Source: an uncultured Candidatus Bathyarchaeia archaeon
GTDB taxonomy: Archaea > Thermoproteota > CALKCG01 > B24
Direction of reading: 5' to 3'
DNA: 64,000 nt
Assembly (NCBI GenBank): GCA_964463005.1
Contig: CAYWZZ010000001.1
Span: 30,952-94,951 of the forward strand
Below are positions 34,898 through 63,688 of this stretch, one piece after another. Numbering within the stretch: the stretch's first letter is position 1; each line of letters begins with the position of its first letter. The notes below the pieces were generated by a model that did no database searches, was not told the origin of the DNA, and saw only the letters and a list, made by a program, of their open reading frames with translations. Made by a program: the position numbers and the translations under genes.

Positions 34898-35900
34898 CTA
34901 TTTCCACATCCTAGGATACGTGTTAGGCTTCATTATTACTCTTTCAGTTTTAACAGCTACACCTTTTTCTCTTTCAAGCATTTCCTCACTTGTCATCAAA
35001 GCTTTACCTAAAGCTACAAGTTCACCCTTAAGAGTAAATATTGCCACTAGATCATCAACTTCTATATCAGAGTTTAGCCTTACAATACCAGGTAATGCTA
35101 GACCTGCACCGTGACATATAGCGTCAACCGCTGTATCGCGGATCCAAATCTTCGGTATAAGAGCGGTAACCTCTTCCACAGGCTGAACGATAGACCTGAG
35201 TGGTTTTTCATCCCCAGCCCTATATGCTTCGACTGCGCCAACCAGATCCCTCAACGACGTTAAACCTCTATCTTCAGCAAAAGGACCAACTCTGGTCCTT
35301 CGAAGCTCTCTCATATGCGCCCCACAGCCTAAAACCTCGCCCATATCGTGTATCAATTTTCTGATATATGTGCCTGCTTGACAGCAGACTCTTAAAAGTA
35401 CATGACGCTTATCAACCTCTAGCACATCTATGTAGTAAATTCTCCTGGTTCTAAGAGCTTTTTTAACAGAAGATCTTAGGGGAGGCTTTTGGTAGATATC
35501 GCCCTGAAACTCTTCAGCAACTTCCCTAACCCTGTCCTCGGAAACATCATCATGAAGCTTCATTACACATACGTATTCTTTGCCTCCAGTCAATAGAACT
35601 TGGAGAACCTTTGTAGCTTCATTCAACGCTATAGGCAGTACACCAGTAGCGGGGGGATGTCTCCGAGGGAGACTCTAGAGTCCCCCCGTGACCAGCTTTC
35701 TTAACGTTCATAATCCTCTTAACGGTAGCTGTTACATCGTGACTCGTAGGACCAGCTGGTTTATCTAAAATGATGACTCCATATTCTAGATGTTCATCTA
35801 TGGTTCTTTTCCAAGGCGGTTTACCGTAAGCTTCATTTGTCTCTTCAAACGTTTTGTAAAGTACTTCTCTTTTAATTTCCCAAGGCGGTTGTAGCCTCAA
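34898..35900 (-). CDS. cbf5: H/ACA RNP pseudouridine synthase Cbf5 (TruB family), interrupted by a putative 16-nt BHB intron
   Basis: N-terminal exon (35675-35900) ends ...[10 protein letters not shown]-terminal exon (34898-35658) starts [17 protein letters not shown]... with TruB and PUA domains. Removing 16 nt restores the universally conserved GHGGTLDP motif. Confidence 0.8.
35659..35674 (-). other. Putative archaeal bulge-helix-bulge intron inside cbf5 (boundary ambiguous by 1-2 nt)
   Basis: Coding strand reads GGGGGGACUCUAG|AGUCUCCCUCGGAGAC|AUCCCCCC. The insert forms a GUCUC/GAGAC hairpin, and the flanking exons pair G6A/UC6. Confidence 0.55.
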
Positions 35901-36184
35901 ACAATGACCCCCTTTTTAGGTTTTAGACTCGTCTCGAATAATTCCCGTAATCCAGCCTTTTCAATAGCCTTTATCACTTCATCATCAGTTGCTCCTCTAG
36001 GTATCTCTAGTTTATAAGGAGTTGGCTCTATATGCTTAATATTTACTCGTCTCCTTTTAACACCACTGATCGATTTAGGTCCAGTTATTAAAACGAAGTT
36101 TTCATCTATCACATCTACTACAATGCACTTCTTACCCGCTTCTCTACCCATGGTTTTAACGCAAACTCGACCTACTTCTATCAT
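35897..36184 (-). CDS. rpl14e: 50S ribosomal protein L14e
   Basis: KOW-like [23 protein letters not shown]... Confidence 0.85.
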
Positions 36185-36216
36185 GGTAGAACCACCGTTT
36201 AATTCACAACAAACAG

Positions 36217-36768
36217 CTACTTGTTTTTAAGTTTAGCATACTCATCTATTAACGTTTTCAAAACTCTGAAGACGGAGTCTGCTGGAAGCCTATCGGTGTT
36301 TAACACGATGTCATATATACTGAGGTTTTGAAACTCTATCCCGTAGAATCTACTGTATCTGAGCCTATCATTAGTCTCTCTACGTAAGGTCTCTTCAGCA
36401 ACTTCTTCGATAGATTTTCCTTCACGCTTTGCTAACCGTTTAAACCTAACGTCGTCTGAAGCCGTTAAGAATATTTTAACGTCGGCCAATTCGCCAGCCA
36501 TCCAGGCTGCTAAATCGCCCTCTAGAACGACGGAGCCTTTTAAAGCTTCCTCCCTCGTTCTAGAATCTATATAGTTGTCCAGTTTAGGGTCATTCTTAAG
36601 CTTCTCCGAGGCTTCAGCCAAGTTTAAACTTTTCCGTTTACAGTATTCGCGGAACAAATTCCCAGCTGAAACATACCTGAGGTTAAATGCCGAAGCTATC
36701 ATCTTAGCTTGAGTAGATCTACCAGCTCCATGCAGACCACTAACGGCTATTACAAGGTTACTGTTCAA
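36217..36768 (-). CDS. cmk: Cytidylate kinase (archaeal CMP kinase)
   Basis: [21 protein letters not shown]-loop. In the conserved position after L34e. Confidence 0.85.
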
Positions 36769-37033
36769 TGCTTGATACCACCTCCTTAATCAGGAGGCGT
36801 TTGAGACAATTGTGGCATATACTTCCTCCGTGAAGTCTTGAAACGGTCCTCTGACTCTTAACCGTATCACGACGGATACCGTGTAATATACCACCGCATA
36901 AGCCACAGTAAGCCACATTAGACTTTCTCTTTACAACCCTTGTAATAGATTTTCCACTTGGGAGCTTGACTTTCACTTTAGGTTTTGCTAGGAGACTTTT
37001 CATCACTACCCACAACCTCCGGAGACGTTGGTA
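36758..37033 (-). CDS. rpl34e: 50S ribosomal protein L34e
   Basis: ...AYCGLCGG...SICHNC... zinc-ribbon. Start placed at MKSLLAKPKVKV; the long ORF's N-terminal extension overlaps the upstream gene. Confidence 0.75.
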   Translation of the reverse strand, partial: YQRLRRLWVVMKSLLAKPKVKVKLPSGKSITRVVKRKSNVAYCGLCGGILHGIRRDTVKSQRTVSRLHGGSICHNCLKRLLIKEVVSSIEQ

Positions 37034-37532
37034 TAAATGATACACCCATAAGCTTAGATATCGGAAGGTTTGATGCGAAAACGCATATTGTGTACCATAT
37101 GGGTATGTTAATTGGCGTTTCAAATGGGAAAGGAACCAATATCGCGTAATTTGAGCCAAAAATACCGTAAAGTATTGAGAAAAATATCCAGAAGATAAAC
37201 CAGAACACTGCTATTCTGATAATAAATCTCGTGAAAACTTTCGTACCGAGGCTTCTAATTATGGGCTCTTTTTTCCTAATTTTTATTAAAATTTTCTTAT
37301 CACTTTTCAATTTATACTCTTCTAGTAACTGCTTATATTCGCTGAACTCTTTCATATATTGTCTCTGAAGCGCTTCATCCATTATGAGTTTATTTATAGA
37401 AATTGATAATAGACCCATTAATAAAGAAAAGCATAGGATAAGAAGGGATCCCATTCCCTGACTAGCAGTTAAAGGTTTTAAAGGGCTCAGAAGCTCTACA
37501 AACATGTTTATAAAAGCTTCAAACGGATTCAT
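36978..37532 (-). CDS. DUF106/EMC3-like membrane protein (putative insertase homolog)
   Basis: Three hydrophobic segments with a coiled-coil loop. Sits in the conserved position between secY and rpl34e. Overlaps the rpl34e start by about 55 nt. Confidence 0.6.
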   Translation of the reverse strand: MNPFEAFINMFVELLSPLKPLTASQGMGSLLILCFSLLMGLLSISINKLIMDEALQRQYMKEFSEYKQLLEEYKLKSDKKILIKIRKKEPIIRSLGTKVFTRFIIRIAVFWFIFWIFFSILYGIFGSNYAILVPFPFETPINIPIWYTICVFASNLPISKLMGVSFIPTSPEVVGSDEKSPSKT

Positions 37533-37538
37533 AATGCA

Positions 37539-38963
37539 TCACTTCTCAAGAATGGGTCTTAAAGCAGGATACATCTCTACAACCCTCTCCTGAACTAGAA
37601 GCTGATAATACTGGTAGGCTATGTCTACGGATAATAGTACACCTGTACCAGATCCGAACACATTAAATAGGTCGGATACCACCGCTATAAACCCTATGAG
37701 CGCCCCTCCGAGAATCGCAACAACTGGAATATACTTACTCATCACAGATTCGACGCTTTTAACGGTCCGCCTTCTACCTGGTATTTGAACACCAGCATCT
37801 ATGAGCTGTTCAGCTACATTCTTAGGCCCCATTCCACCGACTTCTATCCACATGATTGAGAAAACGATGCATAAGGATACAAATGCTACTATGTAAACTA
37901 TCGTCCTAATAGGATCTTCCATAGCTGATGTGAGGTTTCTAGGTGATGTCAAATAGTATGCAACGCAACCCTTTAGTGGCTCCATGGTCTCTGGGTCAAA
38001 TTGAGCCATAATGTTTAACCAGATGTTTTGATTTGAATAATTAAACCTTGCCCAAATAAACCTCAATCCGACGAAAATGTTGGCAATTAGAGCTGACGTG
38101 AATATAACAGGGATAACCGAGACATATAAGAGTTTAAGTGGAAACCTGGCTCTGAAGCCTCTAAACCTTGCGTAGGATATGGGTATTTCTATTCTAACCC
38201 CTTCCAAATACATTATCACTAGAAAAGTTATAACAGTCGATATAAAACCGATCATGTTGGGCGGATTTTCTGTACCACTCCTCACAAATGCTTTAACAAC
38301 ATCTTCTCCCTTTATGAGACCTTCTATGAAGGCTGGAAGAGCCCCGAAGAGTTTTCCATCGTTAGCTATCCCAGGCAGAGGGGAGAAGCCAAACCACCAT
38401 ATTTGCTTAGCAACACCAGCAAGTATGAAGAGGCTTATACCGCTTCCCAAACCCCACTTTTGAACCATTTCATCTAAGAGTATTACAATTATACCAGCGG
38501 CTAGAAGCTGAACAAAAACCAATACACCAGCCTCTATGGATAGTAAGCCGTAAACCCCACCTAAAATGTATACAGCAGCTTGGAAAATGGTCATGAGTAT
38601 GCTCATAAATCTGTTAGCCGTTGTGTAGAGGACTCTATCCTCTGGATTTGAAAGGTCACATTCTACAATTCCAGAACCGACTAAAAGTTGTAGGATTAAA
38701 CCCCCGGTAACTATTGGCCCTATACCTAGCTCCATAAGTGTTCCATGTGTAGAGGCAAATATGACTCTAGCAACTATGAGCGGGTCATACAACCCCCGGT
38801 AAGCTATACCGTATAGGGGGGTTTCGCTCATAATGTAGTATATTAAAAGGGCGAGAAACGTCCATAAAAGCTTAGAGGAAAAACTAACCTTTCTTTCAGG
38901 CTTTTTAACTTCAAACATTAACCTTGAGAAGGGTCTGAAGAAGTTTAGAAACTTACCCGGCAT
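37539..38963 (-). CDS. secY: Preprotein translocase subunit SecY
   Basis: 474 aa, 10 TM helices, downstream of rpl15. Confidence 0.9.
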   Translation of the reverse strand: MPGKFLNFFRPFSRLMFEVKKPERKVSFSSKLLWTFLALLIYYIMSETPLYGIAYRGLYDPLIVARVIFASTHGTLMELGIGPIVTGGLILQLLVGSGIVECDLSNPEDRVLYTTANRFMSILMTIFQAAVYILGGVYGLLSIEAGVLVFVQLLAAGIIVILLDEMVQKWGLGSGISLFILAGVAKQIWWFGFSPLPGIANDGKLFGALPAFIEGLIKGEDVVKAFVRSGTENPPNMIGFISTVITFLVIMYLEGVRIEIPISYARFRGFRARFPLKLLYVSVIPVIFTSALIANIFVGLRFIWARFNYSNQNIWLNIMAQFDPETMEPLKGCVAYYLTSPRNLTSAMEDPIRTIVYIVAFVSLCIVFSIMWIEVGGMGPKNVAEQLIDAGVQIPGRRRTVKSVESVMSKYIPVVAILGGALIGFIAVVSDLFNVFGSGTGVLLSVDIAYQYYQLLVQERVVEMYPALRPILEK

Positions 38964-38969
38964 AAATCA

Positions 38970-39416
38970 TCAAACCTTAACCGTTATTATTTCTCCACCA
39001 GCCTTCTTAATCTTCTCAGCAGCATTCTCAGTAAAACTGATCGCTTTAACTATTACTGGAGTTTTTAGCTCGCCCCTTCCTAGAAGTTTACCGTACCCTA
39101 GAAGCGGTAAGTCTATAACGGGTTTACCATTTTGAAGTTCAACTTTCTCCAGCTTTGACAGTATATCCGTGAGTTCTCCGACGTTAATCTCTTTAAACTT
39201 CAACTTAATCTTCTGCATAGGTGATTTAAAACCCCTCTTGCCAAAATGGTTTGGAGCGTATTTAACCGTCCAAGTCCACTTATGTTTATGTAAGCCAGCT
39301 TTACCGAAACCTCCTCTCATACCACTTTTCCTATGCTGACCTACTTTACCCCAACCGCAGGTTCTAGATCCTCTAAGTTTTCTTATCTTGCGGAGTCTAG
39401 TTGGCATGAAAGTCAC
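38970..39416 (-). CDS. rpl15: 50S ribosomal protein L15 (uL15)
   Basis: ...RGGFGKAG... glycine-rich signature. Confidence 0.9.
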   Translation of the reverse strand: MTFMPTRLRKIRKLRGSRTCGWGKVGQHRKSGMRGGFGKAGLHKHKWTWTVKYAPNHFGKRGFKSPMQKIKLKFKEINVGELTDILSKLEKVELQNGKPVIDLPLLGYGKLLGRGELKTPVIVKAISFTENAAEKIKKAGGEIITVKV

Positions 39417-39439
39417 CGGTTTTCGAGAGAAAAAGGAGA

Positions 39440-39985
39440 CTACTCTATTTTAAGTTTCTCTCCTTTTGTACTATGTTCAACCTTTTTAAGCCGTACTTCG
39501 AGGACGCCGTTCTTATAAGTTGCTTTGGAAGATTTGGGATCTATAGTGCTTGGAAGCTCAAGTTCCTTACGATAGCGTCTATTGGGAGCATTTACATTTA
39601 TCATTAGAGATTTCTCCGTAGCATTAATTTCTATCTGTTCTTTCTCAACTCCAGGAAGCTCAGCTACAACGACTATTTCATCGTCCTTCTCTATTACGTC
39701 AACTAAAGGTTCAATTTCAGATTTTACTTCAGGACCATATCTGCCTGGGAAAATGTTACCAAATTCTCTTATCACGGGTTTCCCATCAGGGCCTATACGG
39801 ATTGAGAAACCATAAGTGTATACCTTAGATTCACCAGGCTCCATTCTCTCAAACATTCTCTCTGGTTCGAATCTAAAACTTCTACGTATAATATCCTCTA
39901 TCATTCTGTTCATACGCTCGAATTCTTCGTATACATCAAACCACCAATCTCTTCTACGTCTTGACCATCGCTCTTCATCACCCAT
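39440..39985 (-). CDS. Small heat shock protein (Hsp20/alpha-crystallin family)
   Basis: C-terminal alpha-crystallin domain ending ...ATYKNGVLEVRLKK. Confidence 0.7.
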   Translation of the reverse strand: MGDEERWSRRRRDWWFDVYEEFERMNRMIEDIIRRSFRFEPERMFERMEPGESKVYTYGFSIRIGPDGKPVIREFGNIFPGRYGPEVKSEIEPLVDVIEKDDEIVVVAELPGVEKEQIEINATEKSLMINVNAPNRRYRKELELPSTIDPKSSKATYKNGVLEVRLKKVEHSTKGEKLKIE

Positions 39986-40040
39986 AGTAGCACCTCCGAG
40001 ACATATAGGAGAGAACTCAGCTATAAACTTAGTTCTAAAC

Positions 40041-40496
40041 TTACAACATTCTCTTTATTAGGGATGCTATATTTGAACCCCAATCGCCAAAACTACCTTC
40101 GGGATACGGTTTTTTAATTGACTTATAGCCTTTACTAGGTGGATGTAAACGGAAAACTTTTTTAAGCCTTGAAATTTCTTTCAAGGAAACCTTACCTTTG
40201 TATAAGGCTTCAGCAAGCTCATCTATCGAGTTGAACCCTAGAAGCTTAACATTATCTTCATTAAGCCTACCCACCCCCTCTATTTCACCCCTCTTCTTCA
40301 AGAGTTCTTTCAGTGTTTCCAAGTCTATGGTACCGTAGGCTACGTAATGCCTCACTTTATTTACCATACTTATGTATGGTTCAGTATTTGGTAACACTAC
40401 ACAGTGGTTAGGTTTTCTCAAATTCAATCTCTTAAGAGTTTCAGCAAAATCCTTTCTAACGTTTACGGTTCCTCTTATTCTAATGACCGCTATCAA
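40041..40496 (-). CDS. rpl30: 50S ribosomal protein L30 (uL30)
   Basis: MIAVIRIRGTVNVRKDFAETLKRLNL. Confidence 0.85.
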   Translation of the reverse strand: MIAVIRIRGTVNVRKDFAETLKRLNLRKPNHCVVLPNTEPYISMVNKVRHYVAYGTIDLETLKELLKKRGEIEGVGRLNEDNVKLLGFNSIDELAEALYKGKVSLKEISRLKKVFRLHPPSKGYKSIKKPYPEGSFGDWGSNIASLIKRML

Positions 40497-40511
40497 CGTC
40501 TAAAACCTCCT

Positions 40512-41147
40512 TTAACGTTTTTGCAGAGCCAACTCATACGTGCTTTTAAGAGCTTCAAAGGTGGCTTTTATCAGAGAAGAATGTGTTCTAGTGGAGCCGA
40601 ATGTTCTAACCCAACAATCCTTTATACCAGCCAATCTTAGTAGAACTCTAGTAATATCACCAGCTACCAGCCCCAAACCTTTGGGGGCAGGTAGAAGAAC
40701 GACCGAAACGCCTCCACATCTACCTTCAACTTTAAATGGCAGAGAATGAGGAAGATTGCAATCACACTCCCACGAGCCGCATCCACGTCTAATGATTGTC
40801 ATGTTTAATTTAGCGTCTTTGATGGCTTTTTGGAAAGCTGTTCTCCACTGGGTAGCTTTTCCAAAACCTATGCCTAAATGACCATTCATATCTCCAGATG
40901 CCACTATAACTCTAAACCTTGACCGCTCACCAGCATCTGTCTGCTTCTGGACAAAAGCTGTATCTAAAACCTCGTGAGTTAAATTTGGAAGGAGAATGTC
41001 TATTATCTCAGGTTCTCTAATCTTATACCCATTTCTAAAAATCTCTTCAATAGAGGTTATTTTCCCTTCCAACACCAGTCTACCTAGAGTAGTTTTAGGA
41101 GTCCAACCTTCTAGAATACTCTTATCGGATGCCCCGGTTTCAAACAA
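40512..41147 (-). CDS. rps5: 30S ribosomal protein S5 (uS5)
   Basis: dsRBD plus S5 C-terminal domain motifs. Confidence 0.9.
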   Translation of the reverse strand: MFETGASDKSILEGWTPKTTLGRLVLEGKITSIEEIFRNGYKIREPEIIDILLPNLTHEVLDTAFVQKQTDAGERSRFRVIVASGDMNGHLGIGFGKATQWRTAFQKAIKDAKLNMTIIRRGCGSWECDCNLPHSLPFKVEGRCGGVSVVLLPAPKGLGLVAGDITRVLLRLAGIKDCWVRTFGSTRTHSSLIKATFEALKSTYELALQKR

Positions 41148-41149
41148 GT

Positions 41150-41743
41150 TTAAACCCTCCCATAAGCCTTTAGAATTCTATTTTTAACCTCATTGAAGTG
41201 GTCTACAATTGACTCTGCGTCCAAACCTTTCTTAAGATAGTTTGAGAATACTCTCTTATAAAGCTCTGGATTCTCAGTTTTAAGTTTACTGGCATATTCT
41301 GCAATATGCTTCCCACAAATTCTATCGATGCTCGGAAGTATCTCTTCTCCATGGGGGATTTCAAGCCCTGCATCTAAAGCACCTTTAAGAGCTATCGAAA
41401 TACGACCCCCCTTGGTGGGTTTAAAAATACCAGAATCTAATACAGCCTTATTCACACCAATTTTCATGCATTTTAAACCAGCCAATAAACCAGTTAGATA
41501 CGCAATGGGAGAATTATTCCCATGACCAAGCCAACCGAAGTCTCTCATAACTTCTCTACTGTGAGCAGATGCAAGAACAACATCACCTTTAAGTGTAGCT
41601 TTAACAACTTGAACTATTATATTCTTCGATGTTCTTCTGATTACAAACCTAGGCAAACCAGATAGTAGAAGTTTTTTTCTACGTCTATAGTCTGTTTTGA
41701 ATTGAAGCCTTCTCTTCAAAGGGAATTTACGTATCCTATTCAT
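41150..41743 (-). CDS. rpl18: 50S ribosomal protein L18 (uL18)
   Basis: Sequence and position. Confidence 0.9.
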   Translation of the reverse strand: MNRIRKFPLKRRLQFKTDYRRRKKLLLSGLPRFVIRRTSKNIIVQVVKATLKGDVVLASAHSREVMRDFGWLGHGNNSPIAYLTGLLAGLKCMKIGVNKAVLDSGIFKPTKGGRISIALKGALDAGLEIPHGEEILPSIDRICGKHIAEYASKLKTENPELYKRVFSNYLKKGLDAESIVDHFNEVKNRILKAYGRV

Positions 41744-42183
41744 TTAAATCGCCTTCTAGCTAAGTTGTTAACCTCTATATAACGTTTTAAAGACGCTATG
41801 CTATCGAAAGCTCCACCTTTAGCCTTAAGATAGAGTTCTCTGTAAACTCGCCTAGTTATTATCCTCCTGTCTCTTAAGTACTTGAGAAATCTTCTTAGAG
41901 CTCTTACCTTAGCGGGCCAAACGTTTTCCGGGTTTAACCTTGCTTTGAAAGCACCCTTTCGACTACCAGGGCCCCTACGTTTACCCTTACGTGTTCTAGC
42001 TCTAACGCGACTTGTTCCTTTTACAGGTCTTTTGGATATTATTCCACGTTCTATAAGACCTTTAACATCTTCCCTCGTTAAAGCAGACGTTACCTCCTCT
42101 AATTTTGATGGGTCTATCCAAACCCTATTAACTCCAACTCCGAGTATTTCAGCAGCTATTCTTCTTTGAACGCTCACATTCAT
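41740..42183 (-). CDS. rpl19e: 50S ribosomal protein L19e
   Basis: MNVSVQRRIAAEILGVG. Confidence 0.9.
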   Translation of the reverse strand: MNVSVQRRIAAEILGVGVNRVWIDPSKLEEVTSALTREDVKGLIERGIISKRPVKGTSRVRARTRKGKRRGPGSRKGAFKARLNPENVWPAKVRALRRFLKYLRDRRIITRRVYRELYLKAKGGAFDSIASLKRYIEVNNLARRRFK

Positions 42184-42186
42184 CGT

Positions 42187-42663
42187 TTAACCTCCAGTAG
42201 ATGGATTTAATATTCGTATATTCAATTCCTTCGCCTTCTCCAATATTTTAAGCCTCTTCCTTCTACCAACTGTATGAGCTATACGTGCAGCTTGAATGGT
42301 TGGATTTAAACTATCGAGATCATCGGGATTATAAACGATTACTTCCTCAAAACCAGAGGGGTGTAAGTTACGAACTGCCCTAGGGCTGCCATAACCAGAT
42401 TTAACTCTAGCAGGCCAACCTTTAACTTCACGTCTCATCTTATTTGAATGACCCCTTGGAGCTCTCCAATTCTCCTTAACCCTAGTAAGCCTCCAACTTT
42501 CACATCTTACAAAGTCGGGTCTATTGGCGTCAAGTTTAGTCCTAATTTTTAAAAGTCTTATAATGTCTGTGGAAAGTTTAGGTTTAATCTTTACCGATGT
42601 TTTCTCAGAAACTGTTTCCTCAGATGACTTTTCTAAGGCTCTATCTTTGTCTTCAGATGTCAC
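42187..42663 (-). CDS. rpl32e: 50S ribosomal protein L32e
   Basis: ...WRAPRGHSNKMRRE... signature. Confidence 0.85.
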   Translation of the reverse strand: MTSEDKDRALEKSSEETVSEKTSVKIKPKLSTDIIRLLKIRTKLDANRPDFVRCESWRLTRVKENWRAPRGHSNKMRREVKGWPARVKSGYGSPRAVRNLHPSGFEEVIVYNPDDLDSLNPTIQAARIAHTVGRRKRLKILEKAKELNIRILNPSTGG

Positions 42664-43202
42664 ATCCCCACCTCCCTATGGTATATGAAGATTCCATCTA
42701 AGAAGACCCTGGGGTCTCTACCGGTGATTTTAGTAGCGTTCTCTATGTTAGCTGCTGTCTGACCCACTTCTTCAATATCTATTCCTTTGACCACTATATC
42801 ATCTTGCTCAACTGTAACTTTCACGTTTCCAAGTATTTTCGCATATCTCGGTGCGCGTTCACCTATGAAATTTTCAATGATTACATAATTACCTTTAACT
42901 CTAACAGTCATTGGAAAGTGCGCGTATACTATTTTTAAACGGTACGTAAAGCCTTTTGTAACGCCTATTATCATGTTATTTATATGAGCGGCTATAGTAC
43001 CTACTAGGGCTCGTTTATTCCTTCTAGGTTTTCCTATGACTTCAACTATTACTTTATCATCGCCATTTTTTCTGATGGTGAGTTGGCCCATGGCATGAGA
43101 GAAGTCTTTACAAAGCTCACCCAACGGTCCTTTAACCTTAACCTTTAAACCATCTACTTCAACGCTGACGCCTTCAGGAATTTCAATAATTCTAGAACTC
43201 AA
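42660..43202 (-). CDS. rpl6: 50S ribosomal protein L6 (uL6)
   Basis: Sequence and position. Confidence 0.9.
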   Translation of the reverse strand: MSSRIIEIPEGVSVEVDGLKVKVKGPLGELCKDFSHAMGQLTIRKNGDDKVIVEVIGKPRRNKRALVGTIAAHINNMIIGVTKGFTYRLKIVYAHFPMTVRVKGNYVIIENFIGERAPRYAKILGNVKVTVEQDDIVVKGIDIEEVGQTAANIENATKITGRDPRVFLDGIFIYHREVGM

Positions 43203-43220
43203 GGTTTTATACCTCCATGC

Positions 43221-43613
43221 TCAGTAGACATAGGCTAGAAGTTTTCCACCTAAGTGTTTAGCCTCAGCCTCTTTATGAGACATTACTCCCAAAGGTGTTG
43301 AGAGTATTAAGATTCCTATATCTCGAGATGGAAGAAACATCCGTTTATATTCATCAAGTTCTTTAAGTCTAACGGAAAATCTAGGTTTAATAGCTTTACA
43401 CTTATTTATGTTACCCAGAAGTTGTACTCTGAATTTACCCCCTCTTCCATCATCTATAAGTTCAAATTCACCTATATAGCCGTAGATTTGCATAACTCTT
43501 AAAACATTCCCTATTAATTTAGAGGCGGGGTAAATTATGCACTCTCTCTCATGTCTAGCTTCACTGTTGGTGATTATTGCCAGAGCATTCGCAAGAGTAT
43601 CATTCATAACCAT
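43221..43613 (-). CDS. rps8: 30S ribosomal protein S8 (uS8)
   Basis: [12 protein letters not shown]... ATG at 43613 is preceded by GGAGG (7-nt spacer). Confidence 0.9.
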
Positions 43614-43626
43614 AACGCATCCTCCT

Positions 43627-43791
43627 CTAATTGTACTTCTTAAAGCCAAGTTTTGGAGCTACTTCTCTAAAACATTGACGACATAGCATAAGTCCATACT
43701 GCTGAATAACTGGGCCGTATGAGCCGCATCTGGAGCAAGGTCTAGAACCTTTACCAAACTTACGTTCCTTTTTAGGCTTCTGTTTAGCCAC
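43627..43791 (-). CDS. rps14: 30S ribosomal protein S14 type Z (uS14), zinc-binding
   Basis: Not in the ORF track (54 aa, GTG start). [54 protein letters not shown] with a CxxC...CxxC motif. Terminated by TAG. Confidence 0.8.
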
Positions 43792-44337
43792 TTAAACCAC
43801 CTCCACACCCAACGTCTCTCTAACGAATGCTATCGATTCCTCCTTTGTTAACCTATGACTCTTTCCAATTTTGCTACGCTTCCATTTTCTTCTAGTTACT
43901 CTATAACCTGGTCTTTCAACGTTTACACAGACATCCATACCTATTATACCCAACGCAGGGTCGTATGTTGTGTTAGGTAAGTCTAAATGGTTTCTTATAC
44001 CTATTGAAAAGTTTCCATGTTCAGTGAAGCTACTAGCAGGTATTTTATAGTTAATTGCTTCGAGGACCCTTTTGAGGAAGTTCATGGCTTTACTTCCCCT
44101 TAAAGTTACTTTAGCAGCTATGGGCTCACCCTTATGTATGTTGAAATCCCGTATTGTTCTCCTCGCTCTACATACGCATGGCTTTGCACCAGTTATGATT
44201 TCGAGGATTTTTAAAGCCTTTTCCAGCGGCTCACCACTCTTACCAACACAGGTATTTACAACAACCTTAGTTATCCTAGGTTTAAGCATGGGATTCATGT
44301 AGCTCAAGATTTTCAACCCCCGGGTAGAGATAAACAT
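43792..44337 (-). CDS. rpl5: 50S ribosomal protein L5 (uL5)
   Basis: Sequence and position. Confidence 0.9.
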   Translation of the reverse strand: MFISTRGLKILSYMNPMLKPRITKVVVNTCVGKSGEPLEKALKILEIITGAKPCVCRARRTIRDFNIHKGEPIAAKVTLRGSKAMNFLKRVLEAINYKIPASSFTEHGNFSIGIRNHLDLPNTTYDPALGIIGMDVCVNVERPGYRVTRRKWKRSKIGKSHRLTKEESIAFVRETLGVEVV

Positions 44338-45062
44338 GGCTTTTCATATCCAACTGGAAAAACATAATCAAGAATTGTGGAGACATTTAAGCCATTTTCG
44401 ATTTCTATGACAGCGGAAGCCTTAGAGGTTAATGAGCCCGGTACCACTTCAACGAGTTTACCCCATTTACCGACGTTGCGACCACCGATAATAAGAACGC
44501 ATACACCTTTTTCAAGTTTAAAATGATCGAGAGTAAGTGGCTTGCTAATATCCATTTTTAAAGTATCGTGAACTTTATACACATCCTCAACGGGGTTTTT
44601 CGGATCTGAAACACGTATCATCATGTTATAGCCATCATGCATGTTAAGTTGAATATGCCCACCCTTCAGGGTAGATTTACCTATTATCTTCCGAAGTTTA
44701 AATTGTGCTTCTTCAGGTTGAATCGGATGTGGAATCAATCCTTTACTTGAGGGAAGTATGCGGTAAAATTTATCGAGTTTCTCTATATGTATTACATCCA
44801 TAAGTCCAACGGGAAAGCCCTTATCACGGACAATCTTACCGTCGACTTTAACGTATCCCCTATTCAGGATAAACTTGACTTCTTTAGCTGTGTGAGCTAG
44901 ACCGAGGTAATCCCTTATAAGGATTTGAAGAGGAATACATCTATCTATCGCATAAGGCCCTGGGCTAGGTTTAACGACCCATTTAAAGGTTTTTCTAGGT
45001 ATATTCCATGATTTCGGCGCCGCCAATCGTTTTAAATGTCTTGACCCACTAATCTTTCCCAA
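44313..45062 (-). CDS. rps4e: 30S ribosomal protein S4e
   Basis: MGKISGSRHLKRLAAPKSW. Confidence 0.9.
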   Translation of the reverse strand: MGKISGSRHLKRLAAPKSWNIPRKTFKWVVKPSPGPYAIDRCIPLQILIRDYLGLAHTAKEVKFILNRGYVKVDGKIVRDKGFPVGLMDVIHIEKLDKFYRILPSSKGLIPHPIQPEEAQFKLRKIIGKSTLKGGHIQLNMHDGYNMMIRVSDPKNPVEDVYKVHDTLKMDISKPLTLDHFKLEKGVCVLIIGGRNVGKWGKLVEVVPGSLTSKASAVIEIENGLNVSTILDYVFPVGYEKPCLSLPGG

Positions 45063-45075
45063 GATAAAAACACCT

Positions 45076-45465
45076 CTACGCTTTTACCACTTCAGGAGTT
45101 TGAATCTTAATTTTCCGCTCTAACGCTTCAACCCTTCTCTTATCATCTAAGTTGAGCTTAGTTATGATTACTTTAGATGGATGTATGGGTATAGGAACTT
45201 TTGAACCGTCGACTTTCTCACGAGTGACACCTTCCACGTAAATACGCATTTTATCCCGATCCACGGCTAAAACAGTACCTGAAAAGCCTTTGAAATCCCC
45301 TCTGACGATTTTAACAGTATCTCCTTTACGTATTGGAAAAGATCTGCGCTTATACTTATCCCTGAGCTCACCGGATAAGTGTGCGGAAAGCATCTTAGCC
45401 TTAACGTGCTTAGAAGCGTTAAAGAGCGCACGTCTCTGTTTTCTAGGTTGTTTAGACATAATCAA
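45076..45465 (-). CDS. rpl24: 50S ribosomal protein L24 (uL24)
   Basis: KOW motif ...IRKGDTVKIVRGDFKG. Confidence 0.9.
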   Translation of the reverse strand: MIMSKQPRKQRRALFNASKHVKAKMLSAHLSGELRDKYKRRSFPIRKGDTVKIVRGDFKGFSGTVLAVDRDKMRIYVEGVTREKVDGSKVPIPIHPSKVIITKLNLDDKRRVEALERKIKIQTPEVVKA

Positions 45466-45470
45466 CCACC

Positions 45471-45935
45471 CTATACGATCATACCCGCTAATGCCGCAAT
45501 TCTAGGCCATCTCTCAGCAGCTTCCATCGCAACGGAGCCTCTTATTTCAGTACCCCGTAGATCTCCCTCAGGTGTTAAGAGAACCGCTGCATTATCTTCG
45601 AAACATATCCAAGTTCCATCAGCTCTTCTATATGGCTTTTTCTGACGGACTATGACAGCGTGCATGACCTGCCCCTTCAATTCAGCTACGCCTCTCCTAA
45701 CACTTACAACAACCATGTCACCTACAGCCGCCGACGGCATTCGTTTAAGCCTACCCTTATACCCTATGACTCCTATTAACTTTAGAAGTTTTGCTCCGGT
45801 GTTATCAGTACACTCTAGGTAAGCACCTACGGGTAAACAACGTGGTATATGAGGCCTATATTCTATGACTGCTACGGCTGATACGGCTCTGGTTTTAGGT
45901 CCACCCTTTGGAGGCCCTTTACGGGACATTTTCAC
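45471..45935 (-). CDS. rpl14: 50S ribosomal protein L14 (uL14)
   Basis: ...[16 protein letters not shown]... signature. The true start may be internal. Confidence 0.85.
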
Positions 45936-46243
45936 CTACCCTCCAATTTTTCAATAACTACGAAATGTACGGTCTTACTTAAAGGTCTACACTCGGCAAT
46001 GCGGACCTTATCACCCTCCTTGACTTTCAAACATGGTGGACAATGTGCGGGTATTCGGCTACGTCTACGCTCATATCTACGATATTTGGGAACATAGTGA
46101 AAGTACTCTCTAGTGACAATAATCGTATTCTGACTTTTAGCACTAGCGACTATTCCTTCAAAAACTTGGCCTCTTGGATGTAAGACCCCATGGAAAGGAC
46201 AATTTTTATCTCCACAGCTGACATCAGAAGACATCAAGGTCAC
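45932..46243 (-). CDS. rps17: 30S ribosomal protein S17 (uS17)
   Basis: OB-fold sequence ...[17 protein letters not shown].... Confidence 0.85.
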
Positions 46244-46509
46244 CTCTTAAGTCTATCTTCAGGCCTCCCTACGAGTTTTATACCGTCTAGTTCGACCTTA
46301 ACACCATCTTTAAGCGTAAATACAAATGTGCAGACTGCTTTCGGAATAGCTTTAATACGTTGTCTGGATTTAATATATATCATGTTCTTAGTTTCATCTA
46401 CAACTTCTCCTTCTACACTCTCATATGCTCTACACAATGATTTAACGACATGAACTTTAAGACCTATAAGTTCATGCTTCAATATGTTAAAGGGAGTAAT
46501 TGAGCTCAT
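46240..46509 (-). CDS. rnp1: Ribonuclease P protein component 1 (Rpp29/Pop4)
   Basis: ...[12 protein letters not shown]...[13 protein letters not shown]... Sits in the conserved slot between rpl29 and rps17. Confidence 0.7.
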
Positions 46510-46733
46510 TTAGACACCGCCTTACGAAGCTTAAGCTCCTCTTCCCTTTGAACTGTGAGAATACGGGCAATGGTACGTCTTATTTCTCTCACTCTAGAAT
46601 AATTTTCAACTGCCCCACCAGCTTTAATAACGGCGTTAAGTTTCATTAGCTCAATCTTAAGCTCAATAAGACGGCGAGCTCTATCCTCAGGGCTCATCGA
46701 CCTTATTTCGCTCATTCTAAGAATAGGCATCAA
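46506..46733 (-). CDS. rpl29: 50S ribosomal protein L29 (uL29)
   Basis: Coiled-coil uL29 sequence. Confidence 0.85.
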   Translation of the reverse strand: MMPILRMSEIRSMSPEDRARRLIELKIELMKLNAVIKAGGAVENYSRVREIRRTIARILTVQREEELKLRKAVSK

Positions 46734-47383
46734 CTACCACTCTCCTGCTTAGACTCTTCACCTTCTTCAAATTCAATCTTTTGAGCTAAATCTTTAATAG
46801 TGATTTTGTCTGGAAACTCCACCCCAGGTGGTAGGATTGTAACCTTTATCCCAAATATTCCGGGTTTAAGCAACAGAGAATATACAGCCGATTTCACATA
46901 TTTCATAGCTGGATCTCCAGATTTAGGGAGATACCCTACTTTATACTTCTCATATCTAGCTCTTTCAGATGTAAGCTTGCCGCTTATCTTAACTTCAGCA
47001 CCTAATGCCCCCGCCTTCATAATACGTTCTAAAGCCCAGAATGCAGCTCTGCGGAAGTGTATACCCTTCTGCATGGCTAATGCTATTCTACTAGCCATTA
47101 TGTATGGGTTAAGCTCGGGGACTGGTATATCAGCCACAGCTATCTGAGGGTTATAAACGTTGAATTTGCTCTGAAGGTCTTTACTTAAAGCCTTAATTAT
47201 CTCTCCACCTTTACCTATGACAAGCCCAGGCCTTAATGCGAAAATTGTAATTCTAGTCCCTAAAGGCGTTTTAGAGATTTCAGCACCACCATATCCTGCG
47301 TCTTTCAAATACTCCATTAGAAATTCATCTAGCTTAAACCTATCCATGTACGGCTTTATGAAGTGTTTTCTAATTGCAGACAT
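46730..47383 (-). CDS. rps3: 30S ribosomal protein S3 (uS3)
   Basis: KH domain plus S3-C domain. Confidence 0.9.
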   Translation of the reverse strand: MSAIRKHFIKPYMDRFKLDEFLMEYLKDAGYGGAEISKTPLGTRITIFALRPGLVIGKGGEIIKALSKDLQSKFNVYNPQIAVADIPVPELNPYIMASRIALAMQKGIHFRRAAFWALERIMKAGALGAEVKISGKLTSERARYEKYKVGYLPKSGDPAMKYVKSAVYSLLLKPGIFGIKVTILPPGVEFPDKITIKDLAQKIEFEEGEESKQESGS

Positions 47384-47483
47384 CTACAGCACCGAGAATC
47401 CCAATCATTATTGAGACTGGCTAATCTAAGATTAGATGGCTTATTAATAAGGTTTACGAAAAATCGCCGAGTAGAGGTATGGT

Positions 47484-47957
47484 TTAAAGTTCGGCTAAAG
47501 CTATTTCAATATGAGTTAAAACTCTAAAGTTAGGAGTTGCACGGGCAAAGGCTCTAGGAGTATAACGTTTTAATACAGTACCTTTTTGAGCAGACGCATG
47601 TATGATTTTAAGTCTATCAACGCTCAGTCCCTTATACTCAGCATTAGCTTCAGCATTCTCTAAAACCTTGAGAATAGCTCTACACGCTTTGACGGGGTAT
47701 CTACCTGCGGACCACTTTTGTAAATCTCTTCTATGTGGAACCTTCTTTTTATAACGTCGATAGGGGATGCTTCTCTTAAGATTGATTACATCTTCCAGAA
47801 GACGCTTCGCATCATCTAGGGATAGCCCTTTTATAGCCCTACAAACTTCTACAGCAGCTTTATGAGAGATCCTTAAATCTCTACCGGAGGCTAGGACTGT
47901 TTTTTCAGGGTCTAAATTTTTCACCGAATAGCCCCAGTTCGGCATAGTTTCCACCAA
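47484..47957 (-). CDS. rpl22: 50S ribosomal protein L22 (uL22)
   Basis: Sequence and position. Confidence 0.85.
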   Translation of the reverse strand: MVETMPNWGYSVKNLDPEKTVLASGRDLRISHKAAVEVCRAIKGLSLDDAKRLLEDVINLKRSIPYRRYKKKVPHRRDLQKWSAGRYPVKACRAILKVLENAEANAEYKGLSVDRLKIIHASAQKGTVLKRYTPRAFARATPNFRVLTHIEIALAEL

Positions 47958-59297: not shown

Positions 59298-59385
59298 GCG
59301 GGGGTAGCCAAGCCTGGTTTAAGGCGCAGGGCTCAGAACCCTGTGGGGTAGCCCTTCGTGGGTTCGAATCCCACCCCCCGCACCA
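59298..59385 (+). tRNA. tRNA-Leu (anticodon CAG), CCA encoded, no intron
   Basis: Acceptor GCGGGGG/CCCCCGC, anticodon stem CAGGG/CCCTG with loop CUCAGAA, long variable arm, T-arm GTGGGTTCGAATCCCAC. Ends in discriminator A plus CCA. Confidence 0.85.
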
Positions 59386-59632: not shown

Positions 59633-60169
59633 TTAGATTTTTTTACGTTTCGTGAGGATATTGGAAAGAATGTCGTAAGCTATGAGTATCACTAAGACTG
59701 TTATAATGCTCCATCGAACCCATGCTTCTTGGAAAATCATCGGTATAAATCCTATAAATCTAACCCAGAAGAATACTTTTCCTACCACATACTTTGAATC
59801 GAAGTCTTTTTCCCAATACCAAGGTGAAGGGTTGTTATCTCCTTTCGTTGTTACTAGAATTCTACCATCGACTTCTTTTATGTCAATAATCCTATGGACT
59901 ATGTATTCGCCGTCTCCGACGGGTTTTACAAACACTATTATGTCCCCCTTTTTCAACTCTTCGGGTTTAACCCCCTTAACAAAGAGTAAATCGCCCACTT
60001 TCAACGTAGGATACATGCTACCAGATGCTACGTAGACAACAGGGTTCTCCGTGAGGAGGATGTACTTAGCTAAAGTCCATAACAAGAAGATGCTGAGAAA
60101 TATTAGAACAGCCAATACGATAAGCTTAATCGAAGGGTCTAATGCGTTAATTCTATCTTTAAGCTTCAA
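59633..60169 (-). CDS. Signal peptidase I (archaeal/eukaryal Sec11 type)
   Basis: N-terminal TM followed by the SGSMYPTL serine box. Confidence 0.7.
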   Translation of the reverse strand: MKLKDRINALDPSIKLIVLAVLIFLSIFLLWTLAKYILLTENPVVYVASGSMYPTLKVGDLLFVKGVKPEELKKGDIIVFVKPVGDGEYIVHRIIDIKEVDGRILVTTKGDNNPSPWYWEKDFDSKYVVGKVFFWVRFIGFIPMIFQEAWVRWSIITVLVILIAYDILSNILTKRKKI

Positions 60170-60368
60170 TCTTCAACCGAAGATACCTAGGAAGGGTATA
60201 TAAAATTATAGAGGCTAGGGATGGTATGTGTATGCAGAAAATCTCAAATGATTCATCGAATAGACGATACCCAGCAATTCTAATAACGATTAGAAGAACC
60301 GACAATGATGTTAAGGTTAGCATAGACGTTTTTAAAGCTTTAAGATCTTTATAGTCCATAATACTCAC
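60159..60368 (-). CDS. Hypothetical small membrane protein
   Basis: 69 aa with two hydrophobic segments. Its start overlaps the rpoK stop (GTGA). Confidence 0.25.
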   Translation of the reverse strand: MSIMDYKDLKALKTSMLTLTSLSVLLIVIRIAGYRLFDESFEIFCIHIPSLASIILYTLPRYLRLKIEA

Positions 60369-60683
60369 TCAGATTTCTCTAGAAGCCATTTCAGTGGGAT
60401 ATCTTGGTAAGTTCCATCGGGAAGCTTTCTACGAACTGTTATAGGTAGTACACCTTTCTCCAGCTCGTAGAGAGCTATTTCCACAGGGTCTTTAATATCC
60501 TCCGGAAGCTTTACGAGAATTGGAGCTCCCATAGATATCTGAAGAGCTCTAGCTCCTGCAATTCTAGCCTTCTCATACTTAGTTAACCTAGGAGGACCTA
60601 TTGAAATTTTCTTGGAAGGTTTTTCAAAACCTTCCCTACTCTTCTCAACAACCGTCCTGTGAATACCCCCTTAGGTCTACCAT
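60365..60683 (-). CDS. rpoK: DNA-directed RNA polymerase subunit K (Rpo6), apparent frameshift in a C5 run at 60666-60670
   Basis: Not in the ORF track. The frame encodes ...PPRLTKYEKARIAGARALQISMGAPILVKLPEDIKDPVEIALYELEKGVLPITVRRKLPDGTYQDIPLKWLLEKSE*. The only upstream ATG (60683, MVDLRG...) is in another frame. Confidence 0.7.
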
Positions 60684-60840
60684 TAAGATAGCTTGTTTAA
60701 AAGCGATATGGAAAACGCTATAAAGATTCATATAAATCTTACTAATCTCTGACCACTCATTTACACATTCTGAAACACTCTCTTTGAACCACCACATCCA
60801 TTACTGTCATGAAAGATCGCACGTTAAACTTGCGAATGCG

Positions 60841-61122
60841 TCATTCCTCCTTCTTAAATTCTCTTAAAGCTATAATCCACGGATATACTGCCGTTAATGC
60901 AAATCCTGCTAATGGGCTGTAGTCGAAAAGCATGTAGCCCGTTTTATACAGGAGGAGCCATATAAGATACGTTATGAACGTCGCCATGAAAAAACCTGAG
61001 GAGAACCTTAACAGTTTAATTTTTTTAGCCTTACCTCCCCTGTATGTGACGGCGTAATGACTAACCACTAGGGAACATGCTACAACCGACCACCATACTA
61101 TGGGCCAGAATATCTCATTCAA
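60841..61122 (-). CDS. Hypothetical membrane protein (3 TM)
   Basis: Hydrophobicity only. Confidence 0.25.
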   Translation of the reverse strand: MNEIFWPIVWWSVVACSLVVSHYAVTYRGGKAKKIKLLRFSSGFFMATFITYLIWLLLYKTGYMLFDYSPLAGFALTAVYPWIIALREFKKEE

Positions 61123-63609: not shown

Positions 63610-63683
63610 GGGCCCGTAGCTCAGCCAGGTAGAGCGACAGGCTCATAACCTGTTGGTCGGGGGTTCGAATCCCTCCGGGCCCA
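63610..63683 (+). tRNA. tRNA-Met (anticodon CAT; elongator type, or tRNA-Ile2 if C34 is modified), no intron, CCA not encoded
   Basis: Acceptor GGGCCCG/CGGGCCC, D-arm GCTCAGCCAGGTAGAGC, anticodon stem ACAGG/CCTGT with loop CUCAUAA, T-arm GGGGGTTCGAATCCCTC, discriminator A. Confidence 0.85.
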
Positions 63684-63688
63684 CGCCT

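Follow-up and report, generated by a model that had tools for sequence, protein, structure and literature searches.

Where does translation begin on an archaeal rpoK gene that lacks a conventional start codon? The question is raised by a locus in the window, which is the whole 64,000-nucleotide stretch of DNA from an uncultured Candidatus Bathyarchaeia archaeon that was analyzed here. An open frame on the minus strand, extending from 60670 to a TGA at 60367-60365, reads GGIHRTVVEKSREGFEKPSKKISIGPPRLTKYEKARIAGARALQISMGAPILV...LPITVRRKLPDGTYQDIPLKWLLEKSE in translation and contains ...GPPRLTKYEKARIAGARALQISMGAPILV...LPITVRRKLPDGTYQDIPLKWLLEKSE. An earlier note on this DNA had recognized an RpoK sequence in this frame that was missing from the list of open reading frames (ORFs), and everything that it said about the sequence proved correct. 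The Pfam family RNA_pol_Rpb6 (PF01192) matched the frame with 46.1 bits against a curated cut-off of 26 bits (E value, 4.8e-12) over profile positions 5 to 53 of 53, placing the Rpb6 domain core at 60440..60592 on the minus strand, or residues 27 to 77 of the stop-to-stop frame. Solved chains of Rpb6 and archaeal RpoK, among them 4qiw_K and 2pmz_K, matched with E values of 1e-12 to 7e-18 in an alignment that spans residues 16 to 93, the aligned part of the chains beginning at about residue 16 to 26. Identity to Bathyarchaeia RpoK proteins annotated by NCBI was 89 to 93%, and LTKYEKARIAGAR is a stretch of the full-length RpoK.

The frame is limited upstream by an in-frame TAA (60671..60673, minus strand), and no ATG, GTG, or TTG of this frame precedes the conserved core, as had been stated. 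The earliest such codon, ATG 60532, lies within the core, and for this reason the ORF list holds only a 55-residue fragment. Because the solved chains align from about residue 16 to 26, that fragment would lack the first conserved helix; residues ahead of ATG 60532 are required by the core. By chance alone, 46 N-terminal codons free of any start are no rarity (roughly 10% by our estimate), and the significance of the stretch comes from its conservation in relatives. Across 68 codons of the core, 13 to 24 synonymous versus 3 to 5 nonsynonymous codon differences were counted per pair of sequences. This pattern points to strong purifying selection, argues against a pseudogene, and indicates an intact, selected rpoK gene.

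The start region was compared within the window's clade, which was sampled as the window and four further lineages (L001 to L003; L010; L011; and L004 to L009 with L012), comprising 12 independent assemblies besides the window. L010, L011, and L012 were added by a scan of species representatives, and a search of metagenomes for nearer relatives of the clade yielded none above 75%. At the position of an ATT in the window (60664-60662, minus strand), ATT was found in L001 to L003 and in L011, and ATC was found in L004 to L009, L010, and L012. None of the five lineages has a canonical start before the core, save that two of them have TTG as the first codon of the core. The nearest matches among database proteins were Bathyarchaeia RpoK sequences annotated by NCBI, P0001 (MYRTVVEKS...) and P0002 (MNRTVVEKS...), whose annotated methionine is encoded by ATT (L001 to L003) and ATC (L004 to L009). 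The NCBI annotation of a further locus, L095, also uses an ATT, after a thermosome stop codon. The ATT or ATC has been kept over roughly 20 to 30% divergence at third codon positions, and the codon that follows is not fixed, being CAC, TAC, or AAT across the clade. Two codons upstream, four clade lineages, including L001 to L003, L010, and L011, have a TAA or TGA in frame, as does the outgroup L091. Taken by itself, conservation of ATT or ATC would equally fit an ordinary isoleucine codon if translation began elsewhere.

The outgroups carry an ATG at this very codon. The start regions read TAA GGG GGT ATG GTT AGG in L091, ATG GGG GGT ATG in L090, and GTG GGG GGT ATG in L096, the last of which was compared with the window by its start region, and in all three the ATG stands exactly at the position of the window ATT, after the same GGGGGT. 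The same codon position and the same G-run argue that the ATT corresponds by position to a start codon that was ancestrally ATG. A rare start, ATT or ATA, had been among the options of the earlier note, which had also proposed a comparison with the rpoK loci of relatives; that comparison, with ATT or ATC kept in all five lineages at the outgroup ATG position, supports the ATT. We infer from it that rpoK translation probably starts at this near-cognate codon. The coding sequence would then occupy 60365..60664 on the minus strand (99 codons plus TGA) and would yield an RpoK of 99 residues whose N-terminal methionine presumably comes from initiator tRNA. The outgroups still have the ancestral ATG, which would have become ATT or ATC in the ancestor of the window's clade and been kept in that form since.

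The proposed start would give RpoK a 25-residue N-terminal extension that is specific to the window's clade, and its frame is open in all of the clade lineages. Over the 26 codons from the ATT to GPPR, variable sites were distributed 7:3:12 over codon positions 1:2:3 by hand count, a bias that is only modest (about p = 0.06 in our rough chi-square calculation). Purely synonymous variation was seen at several extension codons (ACG/ACA, AAG/AAA, GAA/GAG, GGT/GGG/GGC, and TCC/TCT/TCG), the earliest such difference being the ACG/ACA at codon 4. With a stop two codons upstream and the first synonymous change at codon 4, the start would be narrowed to GGG, GGT, ATT, CAC, AGG, or ACG. Among those candidates, the ATT (or ATC) is the only recognized near-cognate codon that is present in all lineages.

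The DNA preceding the gene is also conserved. A block of about 75 nucleotides from AAGATTTATATG (60740) to the start is 85 to 94% identical among lineages, which is above the identity of third codon positions. At its 5' edge lies a TATA-box-like element, TTTATATG (60729..60736, minus strand), that does not vary in the clade or the outgroups and is almost unchanged in the sister clade, where it is TTTATATG in L025 and TTTATATT in L016. Similarity among lineages ends just 5' of this element (60736-60729), for which a promoter function may be proposed. A second TATA-like element, TTTTAAAC (60695..60702, minus strand), is kept in the clade and not in the outgroups, and it too is a putative promoter element. 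It begins 30 nucleotides before A60672; if it is used, transcription would produce an 8-nucleotide leader, AAGGGGGU, and an mRNA without ATG 60683. In the proposed arrangement, rpoK would have its own conserved upstream block, with the TATA-like elements and with a GGGGGT that adjoins the start codon. A scan for sigma-70 promoters and intrinsic terminators, which does not apply to archaea, found nothing. We also considered the upstream block as a decayed coding extension homologous to the sister-clade MPLQVAYNSREAYGIVGLSG, and rejected this. Indels in T- and G-runs shift the frame between lineages while the DNA is kept, which indicates that conservation of the block is at the nucleotide and not the peptide level. 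In the sister clade itself, RpoK has a 40-residue extension (MPLQVAYNSREAYGIVGLSG...; L016:2920-3060 and L025:2880-3020) with an ATG start about 29 nucleotides after a TTTATAT(G/T) box, a distance that suggests a near-leaderless mRNA.

The GGGGGT (60665..60670, minus strand; a G5 corresponding to C5 on the plus strand, plus one base) resembles a Shine-Dalgarno motif and abuts the ATT. It is kept in the clade and before the outgroup ATG, with GGGGGG plus A in one lineage (L004 to L009 and L012). The G-run is only 1 nucleotide from the ATT in the window and likewise 1 nucleotide from the ATG in the outgroups. We judged this spacing atypical because GGAGGT motifs of other genes in the window genome sit 6 to 9 nucleotides before their starts. 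The initiation geometry of rpoK is thus unusual, and at the usual spacing stand an invariant AGG and, in the window only, an ACG. Elsewhere in the window, a long co-directional cluster at 36000-47500 (minus strand) shows clear GGAGGT-type motifs 6 to 9 nucleotides before starts, and many first genes of transcription units have no Shine-Dalgarno motif. Upstream of rpoK, a membrane-like ORF of 93 amino acids (60841-61122, minus strand) has a strong TAAGGAGG motif 13 nucleotides before its first canonical start, a TTG; given this odd spacing, the true start of that ORF may also be uncertain.

The geometry bears directly on the main rival to an ATT start, namely, initiation at another noncanonical codon downstream, with the G-run serving as a Shine-Dalgarno sequence. 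The codon would be the AGG at 60658-60656, 6 nucleotides after GGGGGT, or the ACG at 60655-60653 (minus strand), which is in frame as codon 4 and lies 9 nucleotides after the G-run. Such spacing is that of other Shine-Dalgarno motifs in the window, for instance, AAGGGGGT followed by 6 nucleotides and a TTG in the gene at 35619-35900. The AGG is invariant in the clade and the outgroups, and in other Bathyarchaeia rpoK mostly appears to start at an ACG, which follows a G-rich motif by about 9 nucleotides. However, the ACG is not conserved, its codon being ACA in all four related lineages, and AGG ranks with the weakest near-cognate starts known from bacteria and eukaryotes. Moreover, the outgroups carry a plain ATG at the ATT position after the same adjacent G-run. 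We therefore regard a downstream start as unlikely. Loss of function was also considered. No canonical ORF exists in the frame other than the 55-residue one from ATG 60532, which could be read as a truncated product or as the remnant of a pseudogene. Yet purifying selection appears strong across the whole core, including the codons upstream of 60532, and the truncated product would be missing the first conserved helix, which aligns with all of the solved RpoK and Rpb6 chains. Of the explanations considered, this one is the hardest to credit.

The remaining alternatives involve ATG 60683, which opens a 12-codon ORF, MVDLRGYSQDGC* (60645..60683, minus strand), out of frame with rpoK. As the earlier note had worked out, this ORF would join rpoK only if the G5 at 60670-60666 lost one base or gained two. 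A sequencing or assembly error would be one way to reconcile them, with a true G4 that joins ATG 60683 to rpoK or with a true ATG in place of the ATT, and homopolymer length errors are indeed common in some sequencing chemistries. But the same G5 and the same out-of-frame ATG recur in the three independent assemblies L001 to L003 and in L010, and a G5 also precedes the ATG start of the outgroup L091, which argues that the homopolymer length is real. The absence of a canonical start likewise recurs, with ATT or ATC in 12 assemblies of four other lineages. The error that had been suggested is thus very improbable. A programmed frameshift, also raised previously, would start at ATG 60683 (MVDLRG) and shift by +1 within AGG GGG T into the rpoK frame; it is scarcely more plausible. 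Weak hints in its favor are that the two substitutions seen between this ATG and the G-run (GAC/GAT and CTA/CTG) are both synonymous in the ATG frame, that the sister-clade protein P0008 begins MVGLGG, and that re-pairing from AGG to GGG is conceivable. These hints are outweighed by the contrary points. The ATG is an ACG in L011 and in L004 to L009 and L012, and it is missing from the outgroups, of which L090 and L091 have no equivalent ORF. The shift needed to join the frames is +1 in the G5 lineages and would be -1 in the G6 lineage. The ATG frame runs six more codons past the putative shift site, with neither a zero-frame stop nor a rare-codon pause, and no significant RNA structure was found in the leader (fold z = -0.25; consensus, -4.3 kcal/mol, with little covariation). 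In addition, ATG 60683 would not be transcribed if the second TATA-like box is used. With the ATG, the ORF, and the direction of the shift all nonconserved, a frameshift or fusion with MVDLRG was rejected.

The surroundings of rpoK are shared among its relatives. Directly downstream lies a small ORF of 66 amino acids with no Pfam match (60159..60359, minus strand), which overlaps the start of an S26 signal peptidase gene (59633..60169, minus strand; Pfam PF10502), the conserved downstream neighbor. A gene of 66 to 71 amino acids is called at the same place in L001 to L007, L090, and L091. The gene order of L090 and L091 is that of the window, namely, S25e, a cyclophilin-like gene, two small ORFs, rpoK, the 66-residue ORF, and the S26 signal peptidase gene, and L091 was compared as far as its short contig reaches. 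The earlier note had described rpoK as displaced from a usual place between rpoN and eno, a remark that fits only in part. The gene comes after a thermosome gene in most Bathyarchaeia, and its place beside the signal peptidase gene is common to the whole clade, the outgroups, and the sister clade (L016 and L025). Because it is shared so widely, the arrangement is best read as an old rearrangement, not as something peculiar to the window genome.

Just upstream of the rpoK TATA-like box (window 60740-60840), the DNA differs between lineages. PIN and PaREP1 genes lie upstream of rpoK in L001 to L003 (L001:4479-5783), a phage-type integrase gene ends about 100 bp before rpoK in L008 (L008:1-988) and L009 (L009:1-1137), and about 940 bp without called genes is found in L004 to L007 (L004:5060-6000). 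This stretch of variable DNA may mark a hot spot for insertion or an attachment site. An Rfam scan of the window returned two tRNAs only. A tRNA-Leu(CAG) lies at 59298-59385 (plus strand), between the signal peptidase and aRF1 genes, and a tRNA with a CAT anticodon lies at 63610-63684 (plus strand). The latter combines a G1-C72 pair with an anticodon stem that is not of the GGG/CCC type, features that indicate an elongator tRNA-Met or a tRNA-Ile2, not the initiator.

Noncanonical starts on rpoK do not seem to be confined to the window's clade. We surveyed 146 distinct rpoK loci of other Bathyarchaeia in genome and metagenome collections (L013 to L089 and L096 to L175), which are the best matches to the query and not a random sample. 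An invariant ACG stands 8 to 12 codons before GPP(K/R)L in 101 of these 146 loci, and 86 of the 101 have no canonical in-frame start upstream of the core, save for an occasional TTG or GTG within two codons of it. The ACG is typically one codon after the stop of a thermosome gene (Cpn60_TCP1; e.g., L024:2940-3030 and L095:2480-2530). The codon preceding it takes 19 different forms, and the one following it is mostly a serine TCN with all four synonyms represented. ACG makes up only 16% of threonine codons in the rpoK core. Where these loci have ACG, close relatives carry ATG, GTG, or CTG, as illustrated by ATG TCA GAA CAA AAA ATA AAT GTT in L053 and ACG TCA GAA CAA AAA ATA AAT GTT in L089, and a few have ATC there (L157 and apparently also L174). 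RpoK proteins in the database are often shortened to an internal TTG (MLIGPP...) or absent.

Readthrough of the thermosome stop codon was considered for the ACG group and ruled out. At least nine genomes have the thermosome stop in a different frame from rpoK and still retain the ACG, which excludes readthrough and favors the ACG as the start. Editing of ACG to AUG by C-to-U conversion, a process that occurs in plant organelles, would be an unlikely explanation. The ACG start is probably reached by terminating ribosomes, and most other Bathyarchaeia would in this way arrive at the same outcome as the window's clade, through an ACG start just after the thermosome stop codon. Judged from these comparisons, the weak rpoK start codons appear to be a selected, clade-wide trait, and such a codon probably holds the translation of this small RNA polymerase subunit at a low rate. 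We lean, with some reservation, toward a broader proposal in which Bathyarchaeia keep rpoK on deliberately weak near-cognate starts as a conserved translational set-point for the supply of the subunit. These starts would be mostly ACG, with some CTG or ATH, and ATT or ATC behind the gene's own promoter in the window's clade; the thermosome-linked form would operate by termination-reinitiation. The occurrence across the clade of ACG, ATT or ATC, and possibly CTG on rpoK is a more interesting result than the start in the window alone.

Archaeal start codons are given in a review as AUG, GUG, and UUG (PMC7531240), and aIF1 is the archaeal fidelity factor that discriminates against noncanonical codons (PMC6237735). 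Translational coupling by termination-reinitiation is documented in archaea (PMC6728339 and PMC10666635). A literature search yielded nothing specific on rpoK start codons or on ACG, AUU, or AUC starts in archaea. If the reading proposed here is true, rpoK would supply strong comparative evidence for initiation at ACG and AUY codons, the first of its kind in Archaea. That rpoK has kept a near-cognate start in over 100 genomes suggests that a low rate of initiation is selected for on this subunit, and a near-cognate start would have been regained, as ATT or ATC, in a clade that has rpoK away from the thermosome gene and whose outgroups have ATG. The rpoK starts would thereby offer a testable natural system for start-codon stringency, including aIF1 function, and for translational coupling in Archaea. 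There is also a practical side. Gene finders limited to ATG, GTG, and TTG drop or shorten this essential gene, and because the Rpb6 profile also serves as a single-copy marker for archaea, genome completeness and annotation of Bathyarchaeia suffer when rpoK is missed. The NCBI pipeline already places such starts (ATT or ATC) on rpoK in relatives of the window, and also in L095.

The product of the window gene is like archaeal RpoK/Rpo6 (eukaryotic Rpb6 and bacterial omega; PF01192), with a full domain match and the 89 to 93% identity to Bathyarchaeia RpoK, and it differs in its clade-specific 25-residue N-terminal extension and in the lack of a canonical start. Several known systems of unconventional initiation or decoding invite comparison. 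Genes with a programmed +1 frameshift, such as prfB, Ty1, and antizyme, resemble the locus in having a short upstream ORF one base out of frame and then a run permitting re-pairing; unlike in those genes, the window's relatives have conserved neither the upstream start nor its ORF, and the direction of the shift also varies among them. Termination-reinitiation coupling fits most Bathyarchaeia, in which the rpoK ACG is typically one codon after the thermosome stop, whereas the window's clade has lost the thermosome linkage and has rpoK behind its own promoter-like block. To our knowledge, the published archaeal cases of coupling use canonical starts.

The closest parallels are bacterial genes that start with AUU, namely, infC, which encodes IF3, and pcnB. 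The infC AUU acts as the sensor in an autoregulatory loop of IF3, and we know of no autoregulatory loop for rpoK. Like infC and pcnB, rpoK would be an essential or housekeeping gene that keeps a weak AUU-type start over evolution, and such persistence argues that a low or regulated initiation rate has been selected. The window gene differs from infC in that its Shine-Dalgarno-like run abuts the start codon and in that the fidelity factor of archaea is aIF1 (PMC6237735). Taking these likenesses and differences together, the rpoK of the window most probably joins the known class of genes with near-cognate start codons.
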